64,000 bases of DNA. Source: Cyanobacteria bacterium P01_F01_bin.150. Its GTDB lineage: Bacteria > Cyanobacteriota > Cyanobacteriia > CAKZMO01. The stretch covers positions 1 to 64,000 of the forward strand of contig JBCCYL010000016.1 in the NCBI GenBank assembly GCA_039189765.1, written 5' to 3'. Under the pieces are notes generated by a model. The model saw only the letters and a program-made list of their open reading frames with translations, was not told the DNA's origin and searched no databases. Positions 8,414 through 55,579 of the stretch are shown in pieces. The stretch's first letter is position 1, and each line of letters begins with the position of its first letter. A program made the position numbers and the translations under genes.

Positions 8414-11137
8414 ATGTCTACCTTCTTCTCTCCAGCCAACCATCCCTCTACCTCTGTGCATCCCAATGCTGTACCAAGTGAGACAGAATCTGTTGAATCA
8501 AAGCCCATCAAGGCTAAATCTGTCGATTTAGAATCAGTCATGGAAAAAAAATTGACAGAAAAATGGCTTAAAAACCTGCTAGCAGAGCTCTTTCCAACGC
8601 AATCTTATTCTGGCCACTACCTCAGTCAGCTTCTCAACAAACGCAACATTGCGTCATCTCCCATCTCCCACACAGATAGCGAATCTGCTCAATCTGTGAT
8701 TCCATTTGATCGCAGTTGTCTCGCGGCATTTCTTCACCCCGACTATTACCGGCCCACCGATCCCTTCGCTTTTGGAGATGAAATGGCCTGGGCGATCGCT
8801 CGTCTTCAGCAAGCCCGCGATCACCATGAACGTATCGCTATTTGGGGAGATTTTGACGCCGACGGTCTCACCGCCACTGCTGTCCTGTGGGATGGTCTTC
8901 GCCAATTCTTCCCGGCTTCTGCTCTCTCCTATACGATTCCCAATCGCTTTACCGAGTCCCACGGGTTAAATATACCCGGCCTCAATCGTCTTGCCGATGA
9001 GGGCTGTAATCTGCTTGTCACCTGTGATACGGGTAGCACTAGCCTAGAAGAAATTGCCCATGCCCATACTCTCGGCATCGATATCATCATCACTGACCAC
9101 CATACCCTTGCAGAAGAAAGGCCCAACGTCGTTGCGCTGATTAATCCCTGCACGTTGCCAGCCGATCATCCCTTCGCTCACCTTGCGGGTGTCGCAGTTG
9201 CGTATAAATTAATCGAAGCTCTTTACGAAACGTTACCCCATGTCCCCAAACAGCCTTTGACTCGCATCCTAGATCTGGTTGCCATTGGCTTAATCACTGA
9301 TTTAGTATCCCTTGAAGGAGATTGCCGTTATCTTGCTCAGCGAGGCATTCAGCAGCTCCAAACTTTACTTACCCAACAACCACCGTCTCGTCCCGGCATT
9401 GCTCAATTGTTGAAGTTATGCAGACGTACGGGCGATCGCCCCACCGATATTTCCTTTGGCATTGGCCCCCGCATTAACGCCATTAGTCGCATTCACGGTG
9501 ACGCCACTTTTGCCATTGAATTATTGACCAGCCAAGACCGCGATCGCTGCCGTCAACTTGCTGAGCAAACGGAACTCGCCAACAGTCGTCGTAAAGCCCT
9601 GCAGCGGGATGTAATGAATCAAGTCACTACTCGCATCGCTGAACTTGACCTATCCACTACCCAAGTCATCGTCCTCGCCGATCCCCAATGGTCTATCGGA
9701 GTGCTCGGTCTAGTTGCTGGACAAATCGCTCAAGAATACAACCGTCCCACCATCTTGCTCTCCACCCCAACGCCCCAGCTAAAGGCAGAAGGCAGAAGGC
9801 AGAAGGCAGAGAACCCCCCCCTAGCCCCTCCCAAGAGGGGAACCGAGCCTCCCCAACTCCCCAACTCCCCAACTCCCATTCGGCTGAGCGCTCAGGTCGA
9901 AGCCCAACTCCCCAACTCCCCCTTAGCCAGAGGCTCTGCCCGCTCTGCCCATAACATCAACCTCTACGATCTCGTCAAAAGCCAATCCCATCTTCTTGAT
10001 CAATTTGGCGGTCATCCCTTTGCCGCAGGATTAAGCATTGCAGTAGAGAATATCCCCGTATTTCGGGACAGCATCAATCAAGCCTGTCGTACCCAGTATG
10101 GTGATCTGGCCAAGACCTCTTCCTCTATGAATGAGGCCGACTTGACCGTCACTGTTGCCGAACTGGGACAAAATCTGTTCAGAGAACTAAAGCTTATAGA
10201 ACCCTGTGGCATGGGTAATCCAGTACCGCGACTGCTAATTCAGCACTGTGAATTCAAAGGGCGATCGCATCGTAATATTAAGGACTTTAAAGGAGACAAA
10301 CTACGCTATATCAAAGCGGACTTTCGAGTCTGCGATCGCACTTGCCCCAACGGTTTTCCTGGTACCTGGTGGGGACACTACCAAGACGAACTGCCCGACG
10401 GTCCCTGTGACGCCATTGTAGAACTCGATTTCAACAGCTACAAAAGCTGCTACGAAATTCGCCTCCTAGACCGTCCCCATCCCACCGTTCATTCAACTGA
10501 GACATCCAGTGAGTGCTCAGGCGAATCACATTCACATCAAAGCTCAACTCCATCCTCTCCATCTACTCTCACCATCCTCGACTATCGTCCAACCCAACGT
10601 CCCAACACTCCAACGCCCCAACACCAAACATCCAAAATCCAAAATTCCGCCAACTCCCCAACTCCCCAACTCCCCAACTCCCCAACTCCCCAACTCTCCC
10701 TCACCCAATGTCCCCACAACTGGGCTGAATGGGAAGCATGGATACAAAAGTCCGTTGAAACAGGCCATCCATTGGCGATCGCGTTTTCCTTACCCACGCC
10801 ATCCCCACCAGCGGAAATCTGGAAGCATCTAGTCGGCATTGCAAAATACCTGAGCCGCACTCAGACCTCCATCGACAAATTCAAACTTGCCAATATTCTA
10901 GGAATTGGCGATCGCCCCCTCTCTTTAGGGTTCATCGCTCTCACCACCGTCGGATTTCATATCCAGACTCAAAACACAACTCTCCTAATTACCTCCTCCC
11001 AACACCCCAACGTCTCAAAACACAACGCTCAAACCGCCTCTATCCAAACATTTCTCTACGCAGTTCAGGAGGAGCAATTTCAGCAGCGATACTTTACACA
11101 AGTCGCGGTGGACACATTGGAAGAGACGTTAAAATAA
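8414..11137 (+). CDS. recJ: ssDNA exonuclease RecJ with repeat insertions
   Basis: IWGDFDADG, TCDTG, ITDHH, GPRINA, RGSARS and FGGH motifs. Confidence 0.93.
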   Translation: MSTFFSPANHPSTSVHPNAVPSETESVESKPIKAKSVDLESVMEKKLTEKWLKNLLAELFPTQSYSGHYLSQLLNKRNIASSPISHTDSESAQSVIPFDRSCLAAFLHPDYYRPTDPFAFGDEMAWAIARLQQARDHHERIAIWGDFDADGLTATAVLWDGLRQFFPASALSYTIPNRFTESHGLNIPGLNRLADEGCNLLVTCDTGSTSLEEIAHAHTLGIDIIITDHHTLAEERPNVVALINPCTLPADHPFAHLAGVAVAYKLIEALYETLPHVPKQPLTRILDLVAIGLITDLVSLEGDCRYLAQRGIQQLQTLLTQQPPSRPGIAQLLKLCRRTGDRPTDISFGIGPRINAISRIHGDATFAIELLTSQDRDRCRQLAEQTELANSRRKALQRDVMNQVTTRIAELDLSTTQVIVLADPQWSIGVLGLVAGQIAQEYNRPTILLSTPTPQLKAEGRRQKAENPPLAPPKRGTEPPQLPNSPTPIRLSAQVEAQLPNSPLARGSARSAHNINLYDLVKSQSHLLDQFGGHPFAAGLSIAVENIPVFRDSINQACRTQYGDLAKTSSSMNEADLTVTVAELGQNLFRELKLIEPCGMGNPVPRLLIQHCEFKGRSHRNIKDFKGDKLRYIKADFRVCDRTCPNGFPGTWWGHYQDELPDGPCDAIVELDFNSYKSCYEIRLLDRPHPTVHSTETSSECSGESHSHQSSTPSSPSTLTILDYRPTQRPNTPTPQHQTSKIQNSANSPTPQLPNSPTPQLSLTQCPHNWAEWEAWIQKSVETGHPLAIAFSLPTPSPPAEIWKHLVGIAKYLSRTQTSIDKFKLANILGIGDRPLSLGFIALTTVGFHIQTQNTTLLITSSQHPNVSKHNAQTASIQTFLYAVQEEQFQQRYFTQVAVDTLEETLK
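9781..9921 (+). repeat. In-frame composite repeat in recJ: (AGGCAGA)n, 32-bp hairpin, and (CCCCAACT)n interrupted by the palindrome TTCGGCTGAGCGCTCAGGTCGAA
   Basis: Visible directly; lies between RPTILLS and ARGSARS. Confidence 0.85.
10590..10700 (+). repeat. Short tandem repeats (CCAACTCC)n and CCAAAAT in the recJ linker
   Basis: About six octamer copies at 10650-10698. Confidence 0.85.
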
Positions 11138-11839: not shown

Positions 11840-12319
11840 CTAGCTGTTAATTCCCAACCCTGTTCTAGCTAACGCAGGATCGAAAATAATGGCGTATCGC
11901 AAGGATGGGGTATGCTGTTGCAGAATACGGAGATGTGCATCCGCATCATTGCGGCGACGAAACCGAGCGACTATGCGGTGTTGTAGCTGTGGAAGCAACT
12001 GGACAATACACCAGGGATGAAGTTTCTGTTGGTATGAAGTTTGCTGTGGTTCGAGGGGATTAAGGTTTGCCTGAATTGTCCCTGGGCGATGGAGGGCGCG
12101 ATCGATAATGCCTAAGAGTTGAGATGCATCACTATCCCGTGGACTGATGGTCCAACCTCTGATGGGCGTGAGTTGGTAGGTGAGACGATAGGATTTATGG
12201 TTGGCTCGATGGATGATCCAAATAGCCTTGCGGGGCAACTTTTGCAAGCGGTCTCCTGTTTCTGTTAAGGCTGCTCGAATTTTCTGGATCTCTGCCATGA
12301 CACGCTGACCTTGACTCAT
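11840..12319 (-). CDS. Hypothetical protein (cassette gene 4)
   Basis: ATG 12319 preceded by SD AGGAGG; C-terminal HPWCIVQLLP..VARFRRRNDADAHL..IIFD resembles a small cyanobacterial domain. Confidence 0.7.
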   Translation of the reverse strand: MSQGQRVMAEIQKIRAALTETGDRLQKLPRKAIWIIHRANHKSYRLTYQLTPIRGWTISPRDSDASQLLGIIDRALHRPGTIQANLNPLEPQQTSYQQKLHPWCIVQLLPQLQHRIVARFRRRNDADAHLRILQQHTPSLRYAIIFDPALARTGLGINS

Positions 12320-12419
12320 CTGTTTTCCTCCTGATGGATTGAAATGGTTGATAACTGGAGTCAACCTATGGGGAAGAGAAAAGAAAAGACATACCGTGGC
12401 GCTATTGACATTTTGAGAA

Positions 12420-12764
12420 TTATGTGGGTCGCCTGTCATTATTGCTGAGATTAATTGGGATATTAATCGGACGATTGATCGGACACAGAGCCTCACGCAA
12501 TTCTTCTGGCATTTGGTCAAAGTGATCGAGTAGAAAATCCATTAGGGCTAGGTGTCGGAGATCGATGGCGGAGGGTCGGCGATAGCTGCGGCCTTTGCGA
12601 AACCAGCAGCGCACGGTGGAGACGGAGCGGGAGCAAATTGCAGCCATATCTTCTTGGCTGACTTGCCATTTGGCGTAGAAAGCCTGGGGTGTCATGCCGA
12701 GCTGGCAATAGCTGTACCAGTCAATCAGACTATGATCGTGGGAGTTAAGAAAACGGGGATTCAT
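12420..12764 (-). CDS. Helix-turn-helix DNA-binding protein (cassette gene 3)
   Basis: VSQEDMAAICSRSVSTVRCWF HTH pattern; ATGA overlap with the upstream gene. Confidence 0.8.
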   Translation of the reverse strand: MNPRFLNSHDHSLIDWYSYCQLGMTPQAFYAKWQVSQEDMAAICSRSVSTVRCWFRKGRSYRRPSAIDLRHLALMDFLLDHFDQMPEELREALCPINRPINIPINLSNNDRRPT

Positions 12765-13381
12765 TGTCTGTACTCTGATTCAATGGGTTCGAGGTCGTCT
12801 TCCCAGGCAATATCAGCATTTATCCAGGCAGAACTAGGAGAGTCAGAATCAAGCCAGATCAGATAGGCCCAACGCCAGTGGCAGCGATGGGGTGCGAATG
12901 AATAGAAGCGACCGATAACAATGCCCCAATCGTTGATAGGCTGATGACTGGGTTGATGGCTGCTCCAGTGGAGGCGATCACCATACTCAAATCGAGCGGG
13001 TTCATTATTCGGGAAAGTGTTAGGTAATTCTGTTTTTGGGGAAGCGATATGTAGTTTAGCGAGAGGATTAATAGCATTGAAAGAATAATGACGAATGGTG
13101 TTGAGCTGTGCGCTGAGGCAATTGTCCGTCAGGCTAGTTGTCACCAATTGGATTAGCAGAGCAGCAATCGCCTCCGCCTCTGCAATCGTTGGGCGATCGC
13201 TGTGGGTTTGGATGCGATTAAGTAAAGGGACAAGTCCAAAATCATCCAAAGCCTGCTGATAGCCCATCTGATAGGATGCCGAACGCGAAGCATCGTTATC
13301 GTGATGTTTTTGCAGTGAATGGTGCGGTGAGTGTTGCTGTGAATGCTGCGGTAGACAAGAAGTAAAGAACGGATAAGCCAT
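12761..13381 (-). CDS. Hypothetical protein with a Trp-rich, SH3/KOW-like C-terminal domain (cassette gene 2)
   Basis: RFEYGDRLHW..WGIVIG..WAYLIWLD..WEDDLEP pattern; translationally coupled to the HTH gene. Confidence 0.7.
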   Translation of the reverse strand: MAYPFFTSCLPQHSQQHSPHHSLQKHHDNDASRSASYQMGYQQALDDFGLVPLLNRIQTHSDRPTIAEAEAIAALLIQLVTTSLTDNCLSAQLNTIRHYSFNAINPLAKLHIASPKTELPNTFPNNEPARFEYGDRLHWSSHQPSHQPINDWGIVIGRFYSFAPHRCHWRWAYLIWLDSDSPSSAWINADIAWEDDLEPIESEYRQ

Positions 13382-13520: not shown

Positions 13521-13997
13521 TTAATTGGTAAAGTCTGCTTCCTTGGCAATAAATTTTAGGAGCTTACGTTTAGATCGGTCAGGTTCATATTTGCTGTTTT
13601 CCCATTCGCTTACCGTTTCTCTGCGGACCCCTAATTCCTTGGCGAAATCTTCCTGTTTCAACCCTTTATGACGCCTCAAGGCTTTAATGGTCTGTCCTGT
13701 CCAGGCGATCTCTCCATCTTGCTTGTGGACAGTGTAATTCGCCTGAAACTGCTGAAACGTTACCTGTTGCTCTTCCAGATTTGTCGTTTTGACATGGTAT
13801 TCAGCATGAATCCATGCCTTGGCCTGGAGCGCACTAGTACTATCTCGATTGCTCCACCAATTTCTACGCACACGCGCCGAGGCGGGCAAAGTATCTCCTA
13901 TTAATGCTTCAATTTCAGCAAAGGACAGGGTGATTTCCGCATCTTTACAGTGTTGAAGGTGTTTGAATAATGGATGATACTTACTGCCAGGTTTCAT
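13521..13997 (-). CDS. XRE-family HTH regulator with an extra N-terminal domain (cassette gene 1)
   Basis: C-terminal IKALRRHKGLKQEDFAKELGVRRETVSEWEN; N-terminal SKYHPL..LSFAEIE..LPASA..WWSN domain. Confidence 0.85.
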   Translation of the reverse strand: MKPGSKYHPLFKHLQHCKDAEITLSFAEIEALIGDTLPASARVRRNWWSNRDSTSALQAKAWIHAEYHVKTTNLEEQQVTFQQFQANYTVHKQDGEIAWTGQTIKALRRHKGLKQEDFAKELGVRRETVSEWENSKYEPDRSKRKLLKFIAKEADFTN

Positions 13998-14662: not shown

Positions 14663-16099
14663 TTAGGCATCCAGAGTTGTATTACGGAATTTCCATGCCG
14701 CATTGAGCAGACGAACCCAGCCGCGCTGGACCTGCTTGGGCGTGCACTTCAGTACTTTAGAAATGTCTTGATCAGACAGGGTATTGATATTTTTATCGAT
14801 ATCGCTTAGCTGCTTTTGCTTCAATTCCAATAGCTTACGCTGCTGGGGCTGAAGTGTGTGTATAAAAGCATCCCATTGATACTGGGGCATACCTAGATTT
14901 TGATCCAAATCGGCCCCTAACCACTGGTGGACCATCTGCCAGTTAGAAGAACAGGCAAACTTTTCCACATGGTACTTGAATCGCTGCTGGAGATAATCCC
15001 GCTGACGGGGCGTCAAGTTTAGGACCTCATCAATCTCTGGTGCAGATAAGTCTTGGAGCTTTAGCACCAAATAGTTGACGCAGTCAGCCTGCCCCTGGGC
15101 TTCTAAATACTTGACCAGTTCATCAGTGACGCGATCGCGCAGCACCGAATCAGACGGGTCCACCGCATCCTCTACCATTTGTTCCCGCACCTGCTGGACA
15201 ATGGGAGAGCGACTGTACTGCTCCGCGTCTTCGCCACGACCCGCTTCCACTGCCATTTCAATATCCATCGACGTTTCTTGGGGCTGACGCTGGGAGAAAG
15301 CCTGGGCGCGAAGGACAACTAATTGCTGGTTACGACGACCAGGAAGAGAAATACGGCGCTTTGCATACTGTTCAGAAAAGGCCATATACTCTGCCAGTTC
15401 GATTTTAGTGCGAGGCTGATAGTCGATGGGCAATTCATTTTCCTTACGGAAATTTTTGAGGACCTCAATGTAGAAGTTTTGTAAAAAGTCTTCGATTAAA
15501 TTGTATCGAGCCTGAAAGCCGAAATGTCCTCGTCCTGGATTGATGTGGCGGTACACCATTGCGCTCAATGTGCTGTGTAATTCTACCCGTCCCTGCTTGG
15601 AGCCTAACCGATAGTAGGTCAAGCACTTATTTAAGCGGTGCTGAGCTAGGGTCATTAACCAAGATTCAACATCGCCAGAACGCTGGATGCGATCGCTCTT
15701 TTCACAGATCCGCTGGACTTCTTTAGTAAGGCGTAGGATTACCGCTTTCACACTGTTATTGACAGAAGGGAGGTCCTTACCAAACTCACGGGTAAGAAAA
15801 TTGACAATTAGCAATCGTTGCTTGGCGAGTAGCTGCTGCTGACGAATATCTTCTGGAGATAAAACATCCTGATGGTCTAATGCTTGGTGGGTAGCCTCTG
15901 GAGATCCTGACTGATGGCCAGTTTCTCGCTTGGGCTCAGACGCACGATATTCAGATGGAGAAGGAGGGGTGTTAACGTTGGTAGACTTGACGGATTCAGT
16001 GCTCATGGTTTGACCTTGGATGATGCAGCTCATGATTCTTAATCGATTGGCTAGTGTGGTATCGCGTCGAAGCTCACCGTTGGATGGATTGCTCGACAC
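14663..16099 (-). CDS. HetZ-related protein (paralog type); likely start at 16006
   Basis: GRVELHSTLSA, IEDFLQNFY, ELAEYMAF and LTPRQRDYLQQRFKYHVEKF motifs. Confidence 0.85.
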   Translation of the reverse strand: MSSNPSNGELRRDTTLANRLRIMSCIIQGQTMSTESVKSTNVNTPPSPSEYRASEPKRETGHQSGSPEATHQALDHQDVLSPEDIRQQQLLAKQRLLIVNFLTREFGKDLPSVNNSVKAVILRLTKEVQRICEKSDRIQRSGDVESWLMTLAQHRLNKCLTYYRLGSKQGRVELHSTLSAMVYRHINPGRGHFGFQARYNLIEDFLQNFYIEVLKNFRKENELPIDYQPRTKIELAEYMAFSEQYAKRRISLPGRRNQQLVVLRAQAFSQRQPQETSMDIEMAVEAGRGEDAEQYSRSPIVQQVREQMVEDAVDPSDSVLRDRVTDELVKYLEAQGQADCVNYLVLKLQDLSAPEIDEVLNLTPRQRDYLQQRFKYHVEKFACSSNWQMVHQWLGADLDQNLGMPQYQWDAFIHTLQPQQRKLLELKQKQLSDIDKNINTLSDQDISKVLKCTPKQVQRGWVRLLNAAWKFRNTTLDA

Positions 16100-17107: not shown

Positions 17108-17279
17108 AATATGTCTCTGCTATCAGTGTAGAAGGCTCCCTTTAACGTCTTTTTCTAGCGTAGCGGGATTTGGATGGAAACTGTGGATCGTAGGGGATAT
17201 TATGGATTTGAAGTCTGTCTGCGTAACATTACTTTTGATGTTGATTTGAGACCATCTTCCATTTATCGGAGGGTAAGAG

Positions 17280-19745
17280 TTGTTGAGTTATACCCCACAG
17301 CCGATCAATATTGCGGATATTACCTTGACGGCCCAGCAGCAAGCATTAGCTGAACTTATCGTCCAAAATGTCCATGCTCACTGGAGTAAGAATCAACTTC
17401 AAAAAGGGTGGAACTATGGGGTGGCCTACGATCAGGCAACGCAAGTTCATCCTGAGCTAGTGCCCTATTCCCAACTGGCGGAGCGATCGCAACAGGAAAA
17501 GCGAGCAGCCGTTCATACCGTCCTAAAAATTCTCCTGGCCCTGGGTGGTCAAATTGAAATGACCCCCAACTCAGCAGCCCAAAAAGCCGCCCATGTTGAT
17601 ACTCCAGACATTACGTTTATTCTGGATGCATTGAAATCGTCATCAAATCTCAATGTGGCGACTCTCCTTACTCTGCAACGAGAGACGATTAAACTGAAGC
17701 CCCGAACCCCCTCGGTGTATCACGCATTGGGGGAATCTATCCTTCAGCTTGGCGAGCCGCTTATGGCCTATGACCTTCTGGCAGAAGGACTCAAACATTG
17801 GCCCGCCGATTTGCGGCTTCAGCAACTATTAGCCTTGGCTTTGGCCCGCAGTGGGGCTACCATCGCAGCTAATGCCTTACTAGAAAACCTTGTTAGGAAG
17901 GGTCATGCCGATGAAGAAACCATTGGTCTGTTAGCAAGAACCCACAAAGATCTGTGGAGTGAGGCGGCAGTCAGTGCGGCAAGATCCTCTAGCAATCCTT
18001 CAAAATCCAATTATTCGGGCCATCAGCGTTTAAATCAGTCCCGAACCACCCTTTATGAACAATCTCAAACCCATTTAAAGTTAGCGGCTCAACGCTATCA
18101 GCAAGCCTATGATTTGACGGGAAGCATTTGGACCGGAATTAATGCTGCGACTATGGCCTGCTTAATGAACCAAACGGATCGCGCTCATGCGTTGGCCAGG
18201 ACTATTAGAGAGGGATGTTTAGAGCAGTTGCAACAGCTAAATCAATCCTCTGGTGATCCCTATTGGCTATTGGCAACGTTAGGAGAAGCGGCATTAATTT
18301 TAGGAGAATGGTCAGAAGCAGAGGATTTCTACAGTCGAGCAGTAGAAAGTGGTCAAGGCCGCTTTGGCGATTTTAGTTCCAGCCGTCGAAATGCACTTCT
18401 GCTGGGGCATCACCTCAATATTGATGCTGAGCGGATTAAGAAATGGTTTCATATTCCCAAAGTGGTGGTATTTTGTGGCCATCGCATTGACTCTCCCGAT
18501 CGCCCCCATCCTCGATTTCCGCCCCATTTAGAAGCTAAAGTTTACGAGACAATCTGTGATCGCCTCCAAAAGCTAGATGCGAATCTTGGTTACGCATCCG
18601 CAGCCTGTGGGTCTGACATTTTGTTTCTAGAGGCGATTCAAGCCCTAAAAGGGGAACTACACATTGTTTTGCCCTATGAGCGAGAGGAGTTTATTAAGGA
18701 TTCTGTTCGTATTCCCAATGACGATAATCAGTGGGAAAAACGATTTAACCAAGTTATAAATGCGGCCACTGAGGTTATCGTTACCTCCAAGCGAAAGCTA
18801 CGTACCAGTGCAGTTATGTATGAATATTCCAATCGTCTACTCCACGGTCTGGCAAAGATTCGAGCAGAGCAATTGGGCACTGAGCTGGTTCCTTTAACGG
18901 TCTGGAATGGTCAACCAGGCGATGGTCTCGGTGGTACGGCTAGCACCGTTAACTATTGGCAAGCCTGGAGTGACACGGTTGAAATTATTGATTTGGAGCA
19001 GCTTCAGCAACCCAATCCGATTTCGCTTCAGATGGTGTCTAGTCTTACATCAACACCTACATCAACACCCATATCGGCTTCGGCACCCAAAACGGTTACA
19101 AAACGCTCTTCCGAACAAACACCTCCTGCGGCCTTATCCGCATCCGCCAGCGGTCCATCTCTACCGTCAATCAATATTAAGCCCGGTTCTTCCCAGAGCG
19201 CGGAGCCTCAATTGAGAGCGATTCTGTTTGCAGATGTAGTGCACTATACTCGGCTTATGGAGGATCAATTTCCTCCCTTTGCCCAACATTTTTTGGGTGC
19301 GGTTGCCGACTTGGTTAACACTTCTACCGTACAGCCGCTGATGAAAAATACTTGGGGTGATGCGATTTATCTTGTTTTCACAACGGTGCAGCAAGCGGGC
19401 CACATTGCCTTGGACCTATGTGATTTGGTTCATACTGCGGATTGGGGGAGTAAAGGATTGCCTGAAGATTTGAATTTGAGAATTGCCTTACATGCAGGAC
19501 CCGTATCCTGCCAAATTGACCCTATTACTCAACAGGTGAACTATGTGGGTACCCATGTCAATCATACGGCTCGCATTGAACCCATTACTCCGCCAGGTAA
19601 GGTCTATGCTAGCCAGGCATTTGCGGCGATCGCGTCCTCTGAAGGCCACACGACATTTAACTGTGATTATGTCGGCCAGATGCCTTGGGCTAAGCATTAT
19701 GGAACATTTCCGACCTACCATGTTCGCCGCGTCAGATATACTTGA
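17280..19745 (+). CDS. Multidomain protein: RyR domain, TPR-sensor (TRAF-binding-like), SLOG-like domain and class III nucleotide cyclase
   Basis: NVHAHW..GWNYG..HPELVPYSQL (RyR); DEETIGLLARTHKDLW, GINAAT, YWLLATLGEA (TPR-S); FCGHRID, AACGSDILF (SLOG-like); LFADV, WGDA, RIALHAG, NHTARIE (cyclase). Confidence 0.85.
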   Translation: MLSYTPQPINIADITLTAQQQALAELIVQNVHAHWSKNQLQKGWNYGVAYDQATQVHPELVPYSQLAERSQQEKRAAVHTVLKILLALGGQIEMTPNSAAQKAAHVDTPDITFILDALKSSSNLNVATLLTLQRETIKLKPRTPSVYHALGESILQLGEPLMAYDLLAEGLKHWPADLRLQQLLALALARSGATIAANALLENLVRKGHADEETIGLLARTHKDLWSEAAVSAARSSSNPSKSNYSGHQRLNQSRTTLYEQSQTHLKLAAQRYQQAYDLTGSIWTGINAATMACLMNQTDRAHALARTIREGCLEQLQQLNQSSGDPYWLLATLGEAALILGEWSEAEDFYSRAVESGQGRFGDFSSSRRNALLLGHHLNIDAERIKKWFHIPKVVVFCGHRIDSPDRPHPRFPPHLEAKVYETICDRLQKLDANLGYASAACGSDILFLEAIQALKGELHIVLPYEREEFIKDSVRIPNDDNQWEKRFNQVINAATEVIVTSKRKLRTSAVMYEYSNRLLHGLAKIRAEQLGTELVPLTVWNGQPGDGLGGTASTVNYWQAWSDTVEIIDLEQLQQPNPISLQMVSSLTSTPTSTPISASAPKTVTKRSSEQTPPAALSASASGPSLPSINIKPGSSQSAEPQLRAILFADVVHYTRLMEDQFPPFAQHFLGAVADLVNTSTVQPLMKNTWGDAIYLVFTTVQQAGHIALDLCDLVHTADWGSKGLPEDLNLRIALHAGPVSCQIDPITQQVNYVGTHVNHTARIEPITPPGKVYASQAFAAIASSEGHTTFNCDYVGQMPWAKHYGTFPTYHVRRVRYT

Positions 19746-19937: not shown

Positions 19938-20453
19938 ATGACCCATACAAAATATTTGGCCACCCTACTTTTATGCAGTTTTGTAAGTATGTTAGGGAGC
20001 ATTATGCTGGGGAGTGAAGCTGTAGCTCAAACTCGTCTATCTCCGGAGCCAAGAGTCTGGGATACCCCCAACAATGAGCTTTCTGAGCTTCCCCTCAATC
20101 CGTCCATTCATTTTATGGTTGCAGGACCGATGGGCGGATACCGTCATGAGGAACTGGATCCGACTCGCTGGCGAATTGCCTTATCCTGTGAGGAGGTGTA
20201 CTGTAGCGTCACATTTGACTACATTGAGCACCAGCAAGAATATGAAGGCTTTCCTCGAATTGTTGCCACTTACTGGCTCAATGGGGCAGATATTGCTCCT
20301 GTTATTGACCCCAATAGCGATTTTCTCCATGATATCCACTTTGTCGCTTGGGAATCGTGGAATCGAGTCCTCCTGAGAGAGTACGATCGCTACTTTCATA
20401 TTGAAATCAATCCCGATCGGACCTTTACTATTATTCCCCTTAAGAGCCTCTAA
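19938..20453 (+). CDS. Hypothetical exported protein
   Basis: 171-aa ORF with a signal-peptide-like N-terminus (AVA-Q). Confidence 0.6.
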   Translation: MTHTKYLATLLLCSFVSMLGSIMLGSEAVAQTRLSPEPRVWDTPNNELSELPLNPSIHFMVAGPMGGYRHEELDPTRWRIALSCEEVYCSVTFDYIEHQQEYEGFPRIVATYWLNGADIAPVIDPNSDFLHDIHFVAWESWNRVLLREYDRYFHIEINPDRTFTIIPLKSL

Positions 20454-46498: not shown

Positions 46499-46691
46499 AT
46501 GGTGAATGTGATTCGAGCAGATTGTTCTGTTGATTCCAGTATGTTGAGATTCAGTGTGTAAGTATCTGACCTTACTATGGTCCGTGACGCTATTTCAAGA
46601 TTTTCATATCTTATATCCTGCCACTCAACACTATATTTGGCATGGAGTGCAGACAGGCCTGTTCTACCGTTGCATCCTACTAAAAAGTTCT

Positions 46692-47342
46692 TTGAATAAC
46701 TCATTAACTTTGAATAACTCATTAATAAGATTAGAAACAACTCCAGTTCCATATATATCCGTTTGGCTGATCCCAACTGAAACTGATCGAGCATTTCTAC
46801 AGTCTTTGATCAGCCAGATAGCCCAACAGTATCAAAGCGTAGCGTTTTGCCCGCACGTCACTCTCTTTAGTGTGCCAGTTACAAAGATTAACCAGAATCT
46901 TGTGTCGTCGCCTCTTTCTTCTCCCTGGGATCTCTCTGAAATTGACTGGGACGAGCATCTATCGATTGTTTTAAGCAAATTTTCACCCTTCTTCTTAAAG
47001 ACGATCCACATAGGATGGGGGCGGACGTTTGCTAAGACTGTGTTTGTGCAACTTGAGACAACTTCCACCTTATTAGCATTTATTCAAGCTATGCGAAACA
47101 GCATTACTCAAGGTCCGGCTACACAGGCGATAGAGCAGATTATTGATCCTCATATCAGCCTTATCTACAAGCACTTGGATAATAAGAGAAAAGTAGCGAT
47201 CGCTCAGTCAACAACGTTGCATCAACACACCTTTGGTTTTAGCGAGTTTCAAATTGTAAAAGCCCCCTCACAATTTGAAACGCAAGAGGATGTGCAGGCA
47301 CTCCGCTGTATTTATCGTCAAACTTTAAATAATGGCCCCTGA
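46692..47342 (+). CDS. 2H phosphoesterase (cyclic phosphodiesterase-like); start uncertain
   Basis: Two HxT/S motifs (PHVTL, PHISL) and SVWLIP; TTG starts at 46692 or 46710 inside an 18-bp tandem duplication. Confidence 0.72.
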   Translation: MNNSLTLNNSLIRLETTPVPYISVWLIPTETDRAFLQSLISQIAQQYQSVAFCPHVTLFSVPVTKINQNLVSSPLSSPWDLSEIDWDEHLSIVLSKFSPFFLKTIHIGWGRTFAKTVFVQLETTSTLLAFIQAMRNSITQGPATQAIEQIIDPHISLIYKHLDNKRKVAIAQSTTLHQHTFGFSEFQIVKAPSQFETQEDVQALRCIYRQTLNNGP

Positions 47343-50609: not shown

Positions 50610-51647
50610 ATGACAAAAGTTGGTAACCCCCGTCGGGGCACATTTATTCCGTTCTTAATGCGGGTTCCAGATGGAATGGTAATGTCAGGGGAGGATGCTA
50701 TTCGTCCTTCTGTTAATTCTGCCGAATACCAGCATGCGGAAGAACGGTTTGATAAGGGAATTTTATACTATCAGAAAGGGGCCTATCAACCTGCAATCAT
50801 GGCCTTTCAAGATGCTCTAGAGTGTTACCAAATAGGACAAGATTTGCCAGGGCAAGCAAAAGCATGGGTTGGGTTAGGGTTGACATCTTACGCGATGCAA
50901 GAGTACCACGAAGCGATCGCCTTCTCTAACCATGGCTTGACCATTGCTCGAACAATTGATGATAGCTGGACCGAACGGCAAGCGCTAAGCAACCTGGGCA
51001 ATGCCTATCGTCACTTGTCCAATTACGACCGGGCATTGGACTATAAAAAACAAACCTTATGCTTAGCCCAAAGCCTTAAGGATTTACCCAACCAAGCTGC
51101 CGCTTGGAGTAATTTAGGCATGTTGTACAAGGCGATGGGCGAAGATCGACAGGCTATTGACTGCTATGAAGAAAGCCTGGCGATTGCTCATCAACTGGGC
51201 GATCGCCAGATTGAACGGCAAGTGTTGCAAAATTTGGGCAATGTGCATCATAAGTTAGGAGAACATGAGCACACTATCACCTGCTATGAAAAGCTGCTAT
51301 GTCTGGTGCGGGCTAGCGGTGACCAATGGGCTGAAATGCGGATTTTAAAGAGCCTGGGGAGTGCTTACTACATCGTCAAAAACTATGCAAAGTCTATTGC
51401 CTTTCACCAGAAGCGCTTAATACTGGCTCGCATGCTCCAAGAGCCCAATCAAGAAATTCAGGCCCTTGGTATGCTGGGGACCATTCATCAATCCATCGGC
51501 AAATATACAGAAGCCATTACTTACCATGAACAACAGTTAGGACTAGCTCAAAAGCTCAACCAGCTTCAGGTTGTCCATAAGACTCGGGTAAATCTAAGAA
51601 ATATTTGCTGCTTAGTCGGTGATTTTGAACGGGCGGGGCAATATTAG
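50610..51647 (+). CDS. Tetratricopeptide repeat protein
   Basis: About seven TPR-like repeats (NLGNAY..A..Y). Confidence 0.88.
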   Translation: MTKVGNPRRGTFIPFLMRVPDGMVMSGEDAIRPSVNSAEYQHAEERFDKGILYYQKGAYQPAIMAFQDALECYQIGQDLPGQAKAWVGLGLTSYAMQEYHEAIAFSNHGLTIARTIDDSWTERQALSNLGNAYRHLSNYDRALDYKKQTLCLAQSLKDLPNQAAAWSNLGMLYKAMGEDRQAIDCYEESLAIAHQLGDRQIERQVLQNLGNVHHKLGEHEHTITCYEKLLCLVRASGDQWAEMRILKSLGSAYYIVKNYAKSIAFHQKRLILARMLQEPNQEIQALGMLGTIHQSIGKYTEAITYHEQQLGLAQKLNQLQVVHKTRVNLRNICCLVGDFERAGQY

Positions 51648-51709: not shown

Positions 51710-54700
51710 ATGTACTATCAAGTTGGCGGTAGCCTTGCAAGCAATGCCCCGTGCTATATTCCCCGTTCGTCTGATATGGAGCTGTATCAAGCGCTTCGAC
51801 GGGGAGATTTTTGCTATGTGCTCAACTCTCGTCAAATGGGCAAATCTTCCTTGATGGTCAGAACTCGAGCACGGCTTCAGCAAGAGGGCGATCGCTGCAC
51901 GATTGTCGATATGAGCAACGTTGGTAGCGAAAATATCACTTCTCTTCAGTGGTACAAGGGTGTAATAAAAGATATATTTCGGGGCTTTAAACTTCGTCGC
52001 AGGGTGGATTTTAATGCTTGGTGGGATAAGAAAACTGAGCTTTCTTTGCCTCAACGCTTTAGCCAGTTTATTCAGGATATTTTGTTGCCCCAGTTCCCTG
52101 AAGATAATCTTGTTATTTTTCTTGATGAGATTGACAGTATTTTAAGTTTACCTTTTGCTGTAGATGATTTTTTTGCTGTGATTCGGTATTGCTATAATCA
52201 GCGAGCCATTAATCCTGCTTATCATCGCATTCAGTTTGCCATTGTAGGTGTAGCTACTCCAGCAGATTTAATTCGCGATCGCCAGCGCACCCCTTTCAAT
52301 ATTGGTACCCCTATTCCTTTGGAGGGATTTACCCTCGACCAATGTAATCCTCTAATTGATGGGTTAACCATTCCTCATTGTAATATCTCCAATATTCTTC
52401 AGGAAATTCTAAATTGGACAAACGGTCAACCTTTTCTAACTCAGAAACTCTGCCAGTTGGTCCTATCAGCTAGTCAAGATACAGTCGCTGACAATCTAAT
52501 CATCCCGCCAGGCCAAGAAGCCCATTGGGTCAAAAATATTGTCAAAGAGAAACTAATGGCAGATTGGGAATATCAAGACGAACCCGAACACCTGCGCACC
52601 ATCCGTAATCGACTTTTAAACCGCCCTGACCGGGCTGGACGACTGCTTGGCATCTATCAGCAGATTCTGACCGTGACCTCCCCTGCTTCTCCCCTCCCCT
52701 GCTCCTCAACATCCCTGCTTCCCGGTTCCCCTGTCCGTGCCGATAACAGTCCTGAACAAACTGAATTGCTGTTGTCTGGTCTGGTGATAAAACAAAATGG
52801 CATCCTAAAGGTCAAAAATCGCCTGTACGCCCTAGTGTTTGATGCTGCATGGGTGGAAGAACAGTTGAACAATTTGCGGCCCTATTCCCACGTTTTGTCT
52901 GCGTGGGTTGAGTCCGGACAAACGGATGAATCACGGCTCCTGCGAGGAAATGCCCTAAAGGATGCACAACAGTGGGCGCAAGGGAAACAGCTCAGCGATT
53001 TGGATCATCAGTTTCTGGCAGCGTCAATGGAAAGCGATCGCCGTCAAGAACAACAGGCATTGGAAGCAGCAAGGGTGGAAGCCCTAGAAGCGCAGTTAAT
53101 GCAAGAACAGAAGACAGCGCAAATTCAACGTCGCTCTTTAAAGATGGTGAGTGGGGCATTATGTCTTGTATTGGGGTTGGGGCTGGTTACCTTTTGGCAA
53201 TATCGTATGGCCCGCACCAGTGAGCTGAATGCTCGTCTCAGTGCCATTAGGGCACTGGCCTCTTCTGCTGAAGGCAATTTTGATTCCCATCGTCACCTTG
53301 ATGCCTTACTGCAAGTTATTCAAGCAAAGGAGAGGCTAGAACTCCTACGTCAGGAATCTCCCGATCTCGCCGATACGGAGCTGCCCAAACACGTTGAATC
53401 AGTCCTACGACGTGTGGTTTACGGTGCAGAAGAAGGCAACCGCATCACCACAGAAACTGGCATACGCGCCGTAGCGATCGCTCCCAATAATCGCTTTATT
53501 GCTGCAGCGGGAGCGGATGGCACGATTTATCGTTGGTCCATCAATGGCCAACCCCAACCTTCAATCCCAGACGCCCACATCACAGAAATTAATACCATCG
53601 CCATCAGTCCAGATAGTAAATGGATTGCTTCAGGGTCTGCCGACAAAACGGTCAAGCTTTGGCATCAAGATAATCGTTTGTATAAACAATTGGGGACTCA
53701 TCCTGAAGGCATTCGTAGAGTTTTATTTACGGGGGATGGGCGTTTGGTCTCCGTTGGTGGGGGGCTGATTCGTCTTTGGACGTTTGACGGCGAAATGATT
53801 AATGAATGGCATGGACCTGAAGCGATCGCTATAAATACTCAAAATCAAACCCTTGCGGTATTTATTCCAGGAGATAGACGAGGGAGCAGAGTAAGGAATA
53901 GACCAGACAATAGACAAGGCAATACTTCAAACAGTCGCCCAGACACTGGTCCAGACAATAATCCAGAGGATGTTCAGCATCGATTGATTACATACAGCCT
54001 AGACAATCTAGAGCACAGTCCTTTGAGCGAAGTGACTATCGAATCACCTCCTGCCCGTATGGCGTTTAGTCCTGATGGTAAGCACTTGGTCTTTACCGAT
54101 CAGAATCACCAGCTAAACATTATGTCAGTAAATAGCGACGGACAGTTACGCCTTGGCCCAACAGCAGCAGCCCATACGGTCTTAATTCGTAACATTGATA
54201 TCAGTGCAGATAGCCAATTTATTACTACGGCATCAGCCGATAATACGCTTAAACTATGGGATATGAATGGAACCCTACTTCGTATATTTGAGGGGCACCA
54301 GGCCGTTGTTTGGCATTCCGTCTTTTTTCCAAAGAATGATGCAGATTCCGCAGAGGCAGACCAACGTATCCTTTCTGCTGCCGATGATGGCACTTTGAGA
54401 ATCTGGCAATGGCAGGTTCCCTGGCTGACTCGTCTCTCAACCGAAAGTCGCCGCATTCGGCGGGTAGCTTTTAGCCCCGATGGGCAGCATATTGCAGCCG
54501 CAAGCCAAGAGTTAGCCTTACTCCATGGACTTACTAATAGTGGGGCCTTAAACTCCATTCCGACAAAAGACGCACTGTTTAGTTTGGCATTTAGTCCTGA
54601 TGGCCAAGAAATTGCGACAGGGGCTAGAAATGGAACAATGTCCATTTGGCCTATCGCCTCAGAGGCCGAAGACTTTGACAAACAGTCTCTAGAAGAATTT

Positions 54701-55579
54701 CATGGGCCAGGAACAGTCTGGGGGGTTGCTTTTAGCGCCGATGGCCGGTGGATAGCTTCAGCGTCAGAAGATACGACTATCAAGCTATGGTCCCGTGACG
54801 GCACTTTAGTGCAAACCTTGAGTGGCCATCGTGAAGCGATGCGAGATGTCGTCTTTAGCCCTGACAGTCGTTTCTTAGCCTCCAGTTCTACCGATGGCAC
54901 CATTAACTTATGGCCTATTTCATCGTCCACGCCAAACCGTAATCAAGGGCAACAGCCCAGCCGCCTTGCACAATCGTCACCAATTGCGACAAAGGTTAAA
55001 ACCTTTACTAATCAGCAAGGGAGTATCAGAGGACTGACATTTAGCCCCAATGGTCGTTTTCTGGCAGCAGGAACAGTCAATAACAGCATTAACATTTGGA
55101 ATATTGATGACCCAAGAGAGCCAACATACATCATTCCCCGATTTTGGCGCAATGGCGATCGCGGAGATGGTCATCGTGGCGCAATTTGGGATGTGGCCTT
55201 TAGCTCGGATGGTCAGCTTCTCGCCTCTGCTTCGCTGGATGGCACAGTCAAAATATGGGCGATGCCTGAGGCAATTGCTCAATCTTCAACCCCAGCATCT
55301 CCTTCAACCTCTCACCCTGATACACCACATTTAGTCAGAACCCTAACAGGACATGATGGCCCGGTGCGAGGAGTTGCCTTTAGTCCAGATGGACAAACGC
55401 TTGCCTCCGCTAGTGATGACAGAAATTTAATTCTATGGCAGCTAGACACGATCCTAGGCGAGGATGAACTCAATTATGCCTGCCGGTGGATCGATGATTA
55501 TTGGCACTATCAACTCCAGCCACAAGCTTTAGCTGATACGAGCCTCTCTCCACCAGAGATTTGTGGCTACTTCGACTAA
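51710..55579 (+). CDS. AAA_35-type NTPase with a TM helix and WD40 repeats
   Basis: NSRQMGKSS (Walker A), FLDEID (Walker B), GQPFLTQKLC; many GH..VAFSPDG..W repeats. Confidence 0.9.
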   Translation: MYYQVGGSLASNAPCYIPRSSDMELYQALRRGDFCYVLNSRQMGKSSLMVRTRARLQQEGDRCTIVDMSNVGSENITSLQWYKGVIKDIFRGFKLRRRVDFNAWWDKKTELSLPQRFSQFIQDILLPQFPEDNLVIFLDEIDSILSLPFAVDDFFAVIRYCYNQRAINPAYHRIQFAIVGVATPADLIRDRQRTPFNIGTPIPLEGFTLDQCNPLIDGLTIPHCNISNILQEILNWTNGQPFLTQKLCQLVLSASQDTVADNLIIPPGQEAHWVKNIVKEKLMADWEYQDEPEHLRTIRNRLLNRPDRAGRLLGIYQQILTVTSPASPLPCSSTSLLPGSPVRADNSPEQTELLLSGLVIKQNGILKVKNRLYALVFDAAWVEEQLNNLRPYSHVLSAWVESGQTDESRLLRGNALKDAQQWAQGKQLSDLDHQFLAASMESDRRQEQQALEAARVEALEAQLMQEQKTAQIQRRSLKMVSGALCLVLGLGLVTFWQYRMARTSELNARLSAIRALASSAEGNFDSHRHLDALLQVIQAKERLELLRQESPDLADTELPKHVESVLRRVVYGAEEGNRITTETGIRAVAIAPNNRFIAAAGADGTIYRWSINGQPQPSIPDAHITEINTIAISPDSKWIASGSADKTVKLWHQDNRLYKQLGTHPEGIRRVLFTGDGRLVSVGGGLIRLWTFDGEMINEWHGPEAIAINTQNQTLAVFIPGDRRGSRVRNRPDNRQGNTSNSRPDTGPDNNPEDVQHRLITYSLDNLEHSPLSEVTIESPPARMAFSPDGKHLVFTDQNHQLNIMSVNSDGQLRLGPTAAAHTVLIRNIDISADSQFITTASADNTLKLWDMNGTLLRIFEGHQAVVWHSVFFPKNDADSAEADQRILSAADDGTLRIWQWQVPWLTRLSTESRRIRRVAFSPDGQHIAAASQELALLHGLTNSGALNSIPTKDALFSLAFSPDGQEIATGARNGTMSIWPIASEAEDFDKQSLEEFHGPGTVWGVAFSADGRWIASASEDTTIKLWSRDGTLVQTLSGHREAMRDVVFSPDSRFLASSSTDGTINLWPISSSTPNRNQGQQPSRLAQSSPIATKVKTFTNQQGSIRGLTFSPNGRFLAAGTVNNSINIWNIDDPREPTYIIPRFWRNGDRGDGHRGAIWDVAFSSDGQLLASASLDGTVKIWAMPEAIAQSSTPASPSTSHPDTPHLVRTLTGHDGPVRGVAFSPDGQTLASASDDRNLILWQLDTILGEDELNYACRWIDDYWHYQLQPQALADTSLSPPEICGYFD

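Follow-up and report, generated by a model that had tools for sequence, protein, structure and literature searches.

The stretch of DNA analysed here (the window, 64,000 nt of contig JBCCYL010000016.1 from Cyanobacteria bacterium P01_F01_bin.150) carries, at 17280-19745 on the forward strand, a gene for a protein of 821 aa read from a TTG start, which consists of four domains and a linker: an RyR repeat, a TPR-S scaffold, a SLOG domain and a class III nucleotide cyclase (Table 1). Residue numbers count from the first TTG; the database version of the protein begins one codon downstream, at 17283. The gene is single-copy in its genome (G000), and its neighbours are housekeeping genes (yciO, a HetZ-related gene, ribD and the gene for Ap4A phosphorylase). 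Its GC content is 0.483 relative to 0.467 for the genome, we saw no foreign-DNA signature, and a scan for promoters and terminators around the gene gave results at chance level. Same-genus genomes hold the hetZ-like/yciO and ribD/Ap4A phosphorylase blocks with different flanking genes; hence, this copy lies at a lineage-specific junction. The predicted domains of the protein, together with the TIR genes linked to its relatives, suggest that it is a soluble receiver that would convert a TIR-made ADP-ribose messenger into a cyclic nucleoside monophosphate (cNMP), probably a purine, to be read in trans, and we give this reading a probability of about 0.55.

Table 1. Features of the cyclase gene (positions in the window) and candidate TIR partners on other contigs of the same genome (last row).
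Feature	Position	Strand	Remarks
Whole open reading frame (ORF)	17280..19745	+	RyR - TPR-S scaffold - SLOG - Ser/Thr/Pro linker - class III cyclase; start may be 17283
GGAGG ribosome-binding-like site	17268..17272	+	7 nt ahead of the first TTG
RyR repeat domain, aa 4-93	17289..17558	+	Pfam, 3nrt Z 13.0; W35/H57 at the RyR1 W882/W996 and H904 positions; optional in the family
TPR-S / ASK1-central-region-like helical scaffold, aa 107-391	17598..18452	+	Pfam, 5ulm; candidate sensor of an ADP-ribose derivative
YpsA-fold SLOG, aa 392-580	18453..19019	+	2nx2 Z 19.2; conserved G400, H401, D404, R408, R412, G444, D446, E451, G551-G552-T553
Ser/Thr/Pro low-complexity linker	19023..19178	+	Model confidence (pLDDT) <50; longer than in most relatives
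Class III nucleotide cyclase, aa 639-821	19194..19742	+	D652, D694, R734, N761, R765, K805; base pocket N690, W692, N754, H759
Six multi-TIR proteins	G000 C39:36928-42600, C69:31205-36703, C131:4925-9817, C135:22773-27152, C91:20223-24317, C24:4650-8744		

With Pfam, we found RyR at residues 4-93 (E 1e-23), TPR-S (PF20308) at 165-292 (E 2.3e-19, 70.3 bits against a cut-off of 27.6), Guanylate_cyc (PF00211) at 647-801 (E 2.1e-9, 37.7 bits against a cut-off of 21.9) and a weak match to MAP3K_TRAF_bd (E 0.0016). NCBIfam gave a sub-threshold TPR match alone, and a PADLOC scan at E 0.1, PycC and Thoeris profiles included, matched no family. An AlphaFold model built on 87 relatives (predicted local distance difference test, pLDDT, 87.8; predicted template-modelling score, pTM, 0.80) was aligned structurally to 48,161 solved chains. 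Its three best matches were to the ASK1 central regulatory region (5ulm; Z 19.8, root-mean-square deviation (rmsd) 3.5 Å over 243 residues), CyaB (3r5g; Z 19.6, rmsd 2.5 Å over 176 residues) and YpsA; the bacterial RyR protein 3nrt had Z 13.0, and Foldseek run on the whole model returned chiefly cyclases. An initial annotation, made from the sequence alone, had read four domains in this one 821-aa ORF and kinship with the animal ryanodine receptor and ASK1; the Pfam matches (RyR, TPR-S and cyclase) and the structure search (SLOG) bear out the domains, and the 3nrt and 5ulm alignments the kinship. The protein is genuine and looks intact, and it belongs to a large family that is uncharacterised.

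The middle domain (model residues 391-579) aligned to Bacillus subtilis YpsA (2nx2) with Z 19.2 and rmsd 2.5 Å over 160 of 178 residues. Sequence profiles were silent: the Pfam SLOG models, PF06908 (YpsA) included, matched 0 of 60 family members, a profile search against solved PDB chains gave no match, comparison with an LSDAT protein showed no similarity (probability 0.1), and a YpsA family search of 121 genomes gave one sub-threshold match only, with none to PF06908 in the source genome. Atlas feature matches on the region are labelled DUF1273/YspA (0.91 and 0.84); a model of the domain alone, without an alignment, reached pLDDT 35.5 and was set aside. Hence, the identification rests on the fold, and the model confirms the YpsA-fold SLOG that the initial annotation had proposed. 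Across 150 representatives of the family, the pocket residues are retained in 138-148. H401 (142/150) and D446 (148/150) may take the places of the aromatic residue of loop 1 and the acidic residue of helix 2 described for SLOG domains (PMC6459960, Fig. 1B legend). In the available text of PMC9503650, YpsA-like SLOGs are placed in the sensing or cleavage of cyclic ADP-ribose (cADPR).

The RyR domain is the same repeat as in RY12 of the ryanodine receptor RyR1, with a Trp at the adenine-stacking position: W35 aligned with W882/W996, which flank the RY12 site for ADP/ATP and drugs (PMC13642953 and PMC12627627, as far as available), and ADP is bound there through the Trp equivalent to W35 (PMC13642953). 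Among the RyR domains of 77 relatives, W35 is kept in 75, H57 in 72 and W44 in 74, and Arg stands at position 39 in 42 and at position 50 in 35. This copy has neither Arg; Q39, Y50 and E59 occupy the positions of the RyR1 phosphate-binding Arg residues. Since each chain has a single RyR repeat, an RY12-like nucleotide clamp would need a dimer, and we treat such a clamp as hypothetical because the basic ligands are partly kept in relatives and absent here.

Class III cyclases use two metal-binding Asp, a transition-state Asn/Arg pair and a phosphate-binding Arg plus Lys. We found this set complete in the sequence alignment (D652, D694, N761, R765, R734 and K805), so the initial annotation was right about both metal Asp and the N..R pair. 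It also had the register of the base-selecting N-T-W-G-D motif right, as N690 aligned with the Glu of K-V-E-T-I-G-D in guanylyl cyclase 3et6. The second selector is likewise Asn (N754), and the pair N690/N754 is neither the canonical K+D/T of adenylyl cyclases nor the E+C of guanylyl cyclases. The first selector is Asn in 117 of 120 close relatives. At the same position, the 150 representatives at 50% identity show N 120 times, E 18 times, S 4 times, D twice and K once. W692 is conserved in 120/120 close relatives and 133/150 representatives, and H759 in 119/120 and 138/150, respectively. Arg replaces W692 in nine of the 18 Glu-type members (E-x-R-G-D); hence, W692 and the first selector vary together. 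By their motifs, these 18 members, all within P0122-P0271, are candidate guanylyl cyclases within the family.

As read from these alignments, the base pocket is rebuilt, and W692 is invariant, so that the base cannot be read from the sequence. The mycobacterial class III cyclases Rv0386, with a Gln/Asn selector pair, and Rv1900c, with Asn, likewise lack the canonical K/D pair, and both still use purines; unlike the protein described here, they have other domain partners and no TIR, SLOG or TPR-S link. Rv0386 is an adenylyl cyclase whose guanylyl side activity is 20% (PMC4452763, in part). Against the model, purine cyclase structures reached Z 17-20, compared with Z 13.7-14.6 for PycC structures. 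The Glu-type members, the higher Z of the purine cyclases, the lack of a PycC profile match and the Rv0386 precedent point to a purine product, whereas the Trp at the canonical Ile/Leu position could narrow the pocket and points to another one. We predict that the product is probably a purine (cAMP, cGMP or both); a pyrimidine or other base is unlikely, with a pyrimidine as such unsupported, and little or no cyclase activity is very doubtful. The product may still be the non-canonical cNMP suggested by the initial annotation: the profile search, the closest folds and the 18/150 Glu-type members argue for purines, but the invariant W692 hides the base. In BcPycC, the pyrimidine pocket is formed by Tyr50, Asp94 and Arg97 (10.64898/2026.08.12.744502, available part).

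The transition-state Asn is poorly conserved (N in 30/150 and S in 91/150 distant representatives), and YpsA-like SLOGs have been proposed to cleave cADPR-type molecules (PMC9503650, available text). Both would fit a protein in which catalysis lies with the SLOG, as an N-glycosidase that breaks down or converts the TIR signal, with a cyclase that is weak or only binds nucleotides. We hold this to be highly improbable, as the metal Asp pair and Arg are retained in 148-149 of 150 representatives and Lys in 141, and as relatives labelled Cafeteria roenbergensis keep the cyclase while their SLOG pocket has decayed.

The family search matched 3292 of 8000 scored candidates, and the family comprises 4487 clusters at 50% identity, with 49-75% identity across the best 120 relatives. 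Among the best 150 representatives, 106 are TPR-SLOG-cyclase proteins, 34 have an added RyR domain and 10 are without the TPR part. Relatives are fused to nSTAND1, to a second cyclase with an ATPase, to GAF and to CHAT, and Atlas clusters fuse SLOG plus TPR-S to TIR (56 members) or to BTAD plus cNMP-binding domains (60 members). Occurrence is patchy: we found the gene in 5 of 60 relative genomes, 0 of 3 same-genus genomes and 14 of 300 genomes of the class. A search for viral copies gave 79 pattern matches, of which none was confirmed, and one 105-aa fragment was found among 72,556 plasmid records. No RNA record was listed as a holder, a result that has no bearing on expression.

Several relatives depart from the common layout. 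In P0273 (1523 aa), the RyR repeat is doubled in tandem, which gives an RY12-like pair, and so is the cyclase domain, possibly as a one-chain pseudo-dimer. P0274-P0278 are long relatives that have TPR-S and an intact-looking cyclase (Q-T-W-G-D) but a decayed SLOG; three of them are labelled Cafeteria roenbergensis, which makes acquisition of the module by a eukaryote possible. In genome G004 (C10:526923-529241), a TAA stop breaks the TPR-coding part of the gene. Locus L060 seemed to extend the N-terminus by 1117 aa, but this stretch runs antisense to a TIR gene, and we discarded it as an artefact of ORF calling.

The neighbours of the family were surveyed at the best 80 of 555 confirmed matches (936 kb of flank in total) with a TIR profile built from 24 TIR domains of the source genome. 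We found a TIR gene in the flanks (within about 8 kb) of 43 of the 80 loci, comprising 9 of 31 labelled cyanobacterial loci and 34 of the 49 remaining ones, which include three unlabelled records that fall in the cyanobacterial clade of the tree. Where the flank was at least 8 kb, the count was 39/63. In 34 of the 43 TIR-linked loci (34/80), the TIR ORF lies within 600 nt of the cyclase gene. By chance, 0.7-2.1 TIR genes would be expected in 936 kb, from a background of 0.7-2.2 per Mb in ten genomes selected for a TIR neighbour (57 Mb; 41 genes by eye, or 111 candidates) plus the source genome (23). This linkage supports the role in nucleotide signalling tied to conflict domains that the initial annotation had proposed.

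The 48 neighbouring TIR ORFs form seven sequence clusters spread over several tree clades, and they stand upstream or downstream of the cyclase gene. These are a cyanobacterial triple-TIR cluster (10 ORFs), two clusters with a TIR, a transmembrane (TM) segment and a helical domain (17 and 1), TIR beside nSTAND1 (15), TIR-kinase-TPR (2), TIR-WD40 (1) and TIR-TM (2). A simple hydropathy scan found a hydrophobic segment after the TIR in 31 of 51 TIR neighbours from 94 loci, and most TIR neighbours have the Glu-bearing catalytic motif. Many partners are receptor-like with repeated TIR domains, and the scaffold shares the fold of the ASK1 central regulatory region, as would be expected if the TIR partners activated the cyclase by binding TPR-S or RyR directly, as TRAFs do on ASK1, with no small molecule. 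Because the partners span seven divergent clusters, however, a shared small molecule fits better than a shared surface; the mostly kept catalytic Glu motif and the highly conserved SLOG pocket also argue against direct contact, which we consider very unlikely.

Three observations at these loci stand apart. The 17-ORF cluster (L027:3425-5347 and relatives) encodes TIR-TM proteins with a C-terminal domain of about 400 aa without a Pfam match, adjacent to and co-oriented with the cyclase gene, upstream or downstream. At L007:7103-7873 and L008:7111-7869, the cyclase gene is preceded, at a distance of 45-59 nt, by an LSDAT (TRPM-type) SLOG gene, and TPS-domain proteins are encoded downstream. The translation of L054:9957-11210, directly downstream of the cyclase gene, looks to the eye like a two-part SLATT-type membrane protein; Pfam at 1e-4 gave no match.

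The source genome itself has six proteins with three or five TIR domains followed by a hydrophobic segment; beyond it, five have WD40 and one has CHASE2. Most of the TIRs bear the Glu motif, and all six proteins are encoded on other contigs. Proteins of this Toll-like layout occur in 44 of 300 genomes of the class. Searching these 300 genomes with the triple-TIR region, we found it in 12 of 14 cyclase carriers relative to 32 of 286 non-carriers (Fisher p 2e-9). Within the four carrier families, the counts were 11/12 carriers and 15/59 others, and among relatives of at least 4.5 Mb, 5/5 and 13/35 (p 0.013). A control STAND family occurs in 14/14 carriers and 182/286 others; in control-positive genomes only, triple-TIR proteins are in 12/14 carriers relative to 29/182 (tallied by eye from listings). 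The two carriers without the triple-TIR type hold other TIR genes, one adjoining the cyclase gene. The relation is one-way, as the majority of receptor-bearing genomes are without the cyclase. Hence, from the linkage in cis (43/80 loci) and the cyanobacterial co-occurrence (12/14 carriers), the input probably comes from another protein, and the 'self-contained' sensor/cyclase of the initial annotation is not supported.

These results also bear on a stand-alone metabolite sensor in this lineage, in which SLOG and RyR would read NAD+, ADP-ribose or ADP and the cyclase would make cAMP or cGMP in a housekeeping-type role. The housekeeping neighbours, the 22 cyclase matches in the source genome, the binding of ADP by RyR1 RY12 through the W35-equivalent Trp (PMC13642953) and the LSDAT SLOG genes, not TIR, upstream in L007 and L008 agree with it. 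It leaves the TIR linkage in cis and in trans and the TIR fusion unexplained, and we find it quite unlikely.

In the relay that we propose instead, a TIR enzyme would turn NAD+ into an ADP-ribose derivative, as the gene context suggests, under the control of a STAND NTPase or of a sensor outside the cytoplasm (TIR-TM-WD40, TIR-TM-CHASE2 or TIR-TM-helical domain). The messenger would be bound by the TPR-S scaffold, the SLOG pocket or both, a step modelled on the fold and on Thoeris precedents, and the optional RyR domain may contribute an adenine-nucleotide input. The class III domains, whose catalytic residues are present, would then come together as a homodimer and synthesise a 3',5'-cNMP. 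In the last and weakest step, CRP-type or other cNMP-binding proteins would read the cNMP in trans, for an output that is regulatory and not suicidal; the source genome has 14 cNMP-binding domain matches. Here, the part of the TIR enzyme would fall to the six multi-TIR-TM proteins encoded on other contigs. A fuller cascade, widespread in bacteria, which we regard as rather unlikely in all its parts, would have Toll-like multi-TIR-TM-WD40/CHASE2 membrane receptors make cADPR or a related molecule, the soluble RyR/TPR-S/SLOG cyclase convert it to a cNMP not yet assigned to its Asn/Trp/Asn/His pocket, and a dimeric RyR form an RY12-like site for the ADP-ribose messenger.

Several results weigh against the relay. 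Profile searches of host contig C16 gave no TIR and no cNMP-binding match, so the initial annotation was right that no partner gene is nearby, and in the gene's own 18-row clade only 1 of 17 other rows (L010) has a TIR neighbour. TIR genes lie within about 9 kb of the cyclase gene in only 3 of 14 carriers of the class sample, and cNMP-binding genes lie near just 4 of 94 loci. The locus survey took the best 80 among 555 matches and so over-represents Pyrinomonadaceae. The carriers are genomes rich in STAND/WD40 signalling, as the control STAND family shows, and the co-occurrence p-values overstate the association because kin are not independent and the sample overlaps the 80 loci. Multi-TIR receptors without the cyclase occur in 32 genomes, including the same-genus genome of the class sample, and in all three same-genus relatives; hence, these receptors have other outputs. 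RyR is missing from 22 of 80 related loci, and in this copy it is without the RY12 phosphate-binding Arg residues. Finally, domains, folds, residues, linkage and co-occurrence are observations, whereas every biochemical step of the relay is a prediction, though a plausible one.

A Thoeris- or Pycsar-like anti-phage module, in which infection would trigger the TIR partner or the protein itself and the cyclase would make a non-canonical cNMP or drain nucleoside triphosphates and so abort infection, agrees with the patchy distribution, the links to TIR, nSTAND1 and NACHT genes and the rebuilt pocket with its invariant W692. STAND-fused cyclases are also a predicted immune clade in the Pucsar preprint, which has TPR in a figure legend (10.64898/2026.08.12.744502, in its available part). 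PADLOC was run on neighbouring ORFs of 110-900 aa from 16 cyanobacterial and 13 other loci (six chosen loci were dropped for size), and it matched 16/146 and 10/150 neighbours, respectively, relative to 5/31 genes of the window, a crude one-window background. The matched neighbours were mostly generic (ABC, methyltransferase, WD40, kinase and E1-like domains), and the family neighbours are not enriched for known defence genes. The missing PycC and Thoeris profile matches, the lack of a viral copy, the single 105-aa plasmid fragment, the strong conservation of a single-copy gene and the outward-facing sensors, such as CHASE2, that partners often bear also argue against this module, which we judge unlikely. 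The defence role put forward in the initial annotation is weakly supported: an excess of PADLOC matches over window genes, viral copies and, but for that fragment, plasmid copies did not appear.

Among known systems, a TIR-signal receiver close to the one proposed is found in type VIII Thoeris, in which ThsB TIR signals with cADPR to ThsI (CMP-hydrolase plus TPR); ThsI responds to cADPR, the SLOG of ThsA binds 3'cADPR, and the ThsI authors tied its TPR to the sensor predicted by Burroughs & Aravind 2020 (10.64898/2025.12.03.692087). The available text of that preprint, which does not extend to Fig. 1C and Table S1, names no cyclase effector. Both systems have a TIR partner and an effector in which a TPR scaffold adjoins a Rossmannoid domain that handles nucleotides. 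The protein here differs in adding SLOG, a class III cyclase and RyR, its family's partners are often membrane receptors and not a stand-alone ThsB, its neighbourhood shows no defence-island context, and this copy has no adjacent TIR. It shares with type I Thoeris ThsA (SIR2-SLOG) a SLOG fused to an enzyme, the TIR link and the logic of a sensor that gates an enzyme; its output, however, would be a second messenger and not NAD+ depletion, and its SLOG is YpsA-like without a Pfam SLOG match. With no adjacent TIR and no defence island, this copy is not a member of Thoeris; working like a Thoeris effector with a cyclase output, as a TIR-signal receiver, is plausible by analogy, with the mechanism predicted.

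The protein is also not a Pycsar or Pucsar member. It shares the class III fold and a rebuilt base pocket with PycC and PucC, but there the cNMP activates a TIR protein with a cyclic-nucleotide-binding domain (CNBD-TIR), whereas here TIR would activate the cyclase; moreover, no PycC profile matched, no CNBD-TIR or 3TM effector is adjacent, and the window has no cNMP-binding domain. Relative to ASK1 (MAP3K5), with which it shares the TPR fold of the central regulatory region, it has a cyclase in place of the kinase. An A/G cyclase is listed among the contexts of YpsA (PMC6459960, Fig. 1A legend). Our literature search, over sources available in part, found no description of this architecture, which may already be predicted in print (in earlier Aravind-group papers or in figures), and the available portions of PMC8195603, PMC7159879 and PMC7016017 do not mention it.

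In Thoeris types I, II, IV, VII and VIII, as described in the sources available in part, receivers of the TIR signal act, or are believed to act, by killing or arresting the cell. If the proposed relay is right, a TIR signal would go in and a cNMP would come out, joining two messenger classes in the reverse order, as known immune cyclases act upstream of TIR; it would also bring transmembrane sensing, in soil bacteria and in cyanobacteria with larger genomes, within the reach of TIR signalling. The ASK1-type TPR scaffold, the YpsA-like SLOG and the RyR repeat stand together in a single soluble enzyme whose read-out is simple, so that what each of the three binds can be tested directly. The fuller cascade would provide a bacterial model for small-molecule control of the ASK1 scaffold, and an RyR dimer that bound the ADP-ribose messenger would be one for the long-debated link between cADPR and the ryanodine receptor.

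Other genes of the window were noted. Behind the cyclase gene and co-oriented with it is a 171-aa ORF (19938-20453, +) with a hydrophobic N-terminus; it had no Pfam, NCBIfam or PADLOC match and was not found in four syntenic same-genus stretches. Farther off, at 27-36 kb and with no link to the cyclase gene shown, are an AAA_35-WD40 gene (51710-55579, +), a TPR gene (50610-51647, +) and a gene like those for cyclic phosphodiesterase (CPDase; 46554-47342, +). On the other side, a HetZ-related protein (14663-16099, -) matches NF037964 above the cut-off, and the region with 13521-13997 (-) and 11840-13381 (-), in which a DUF7662 plus HTH_3 antitoxin-like gene stands beside three ORFs without a clear family, is possibly a small mobile or toxin-antitoxin-like block. 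A RecJ-like gene (8414-11137, +) bears Pro-rich low-complexity insertions of repeated 'PQLPNSPT'-type units.

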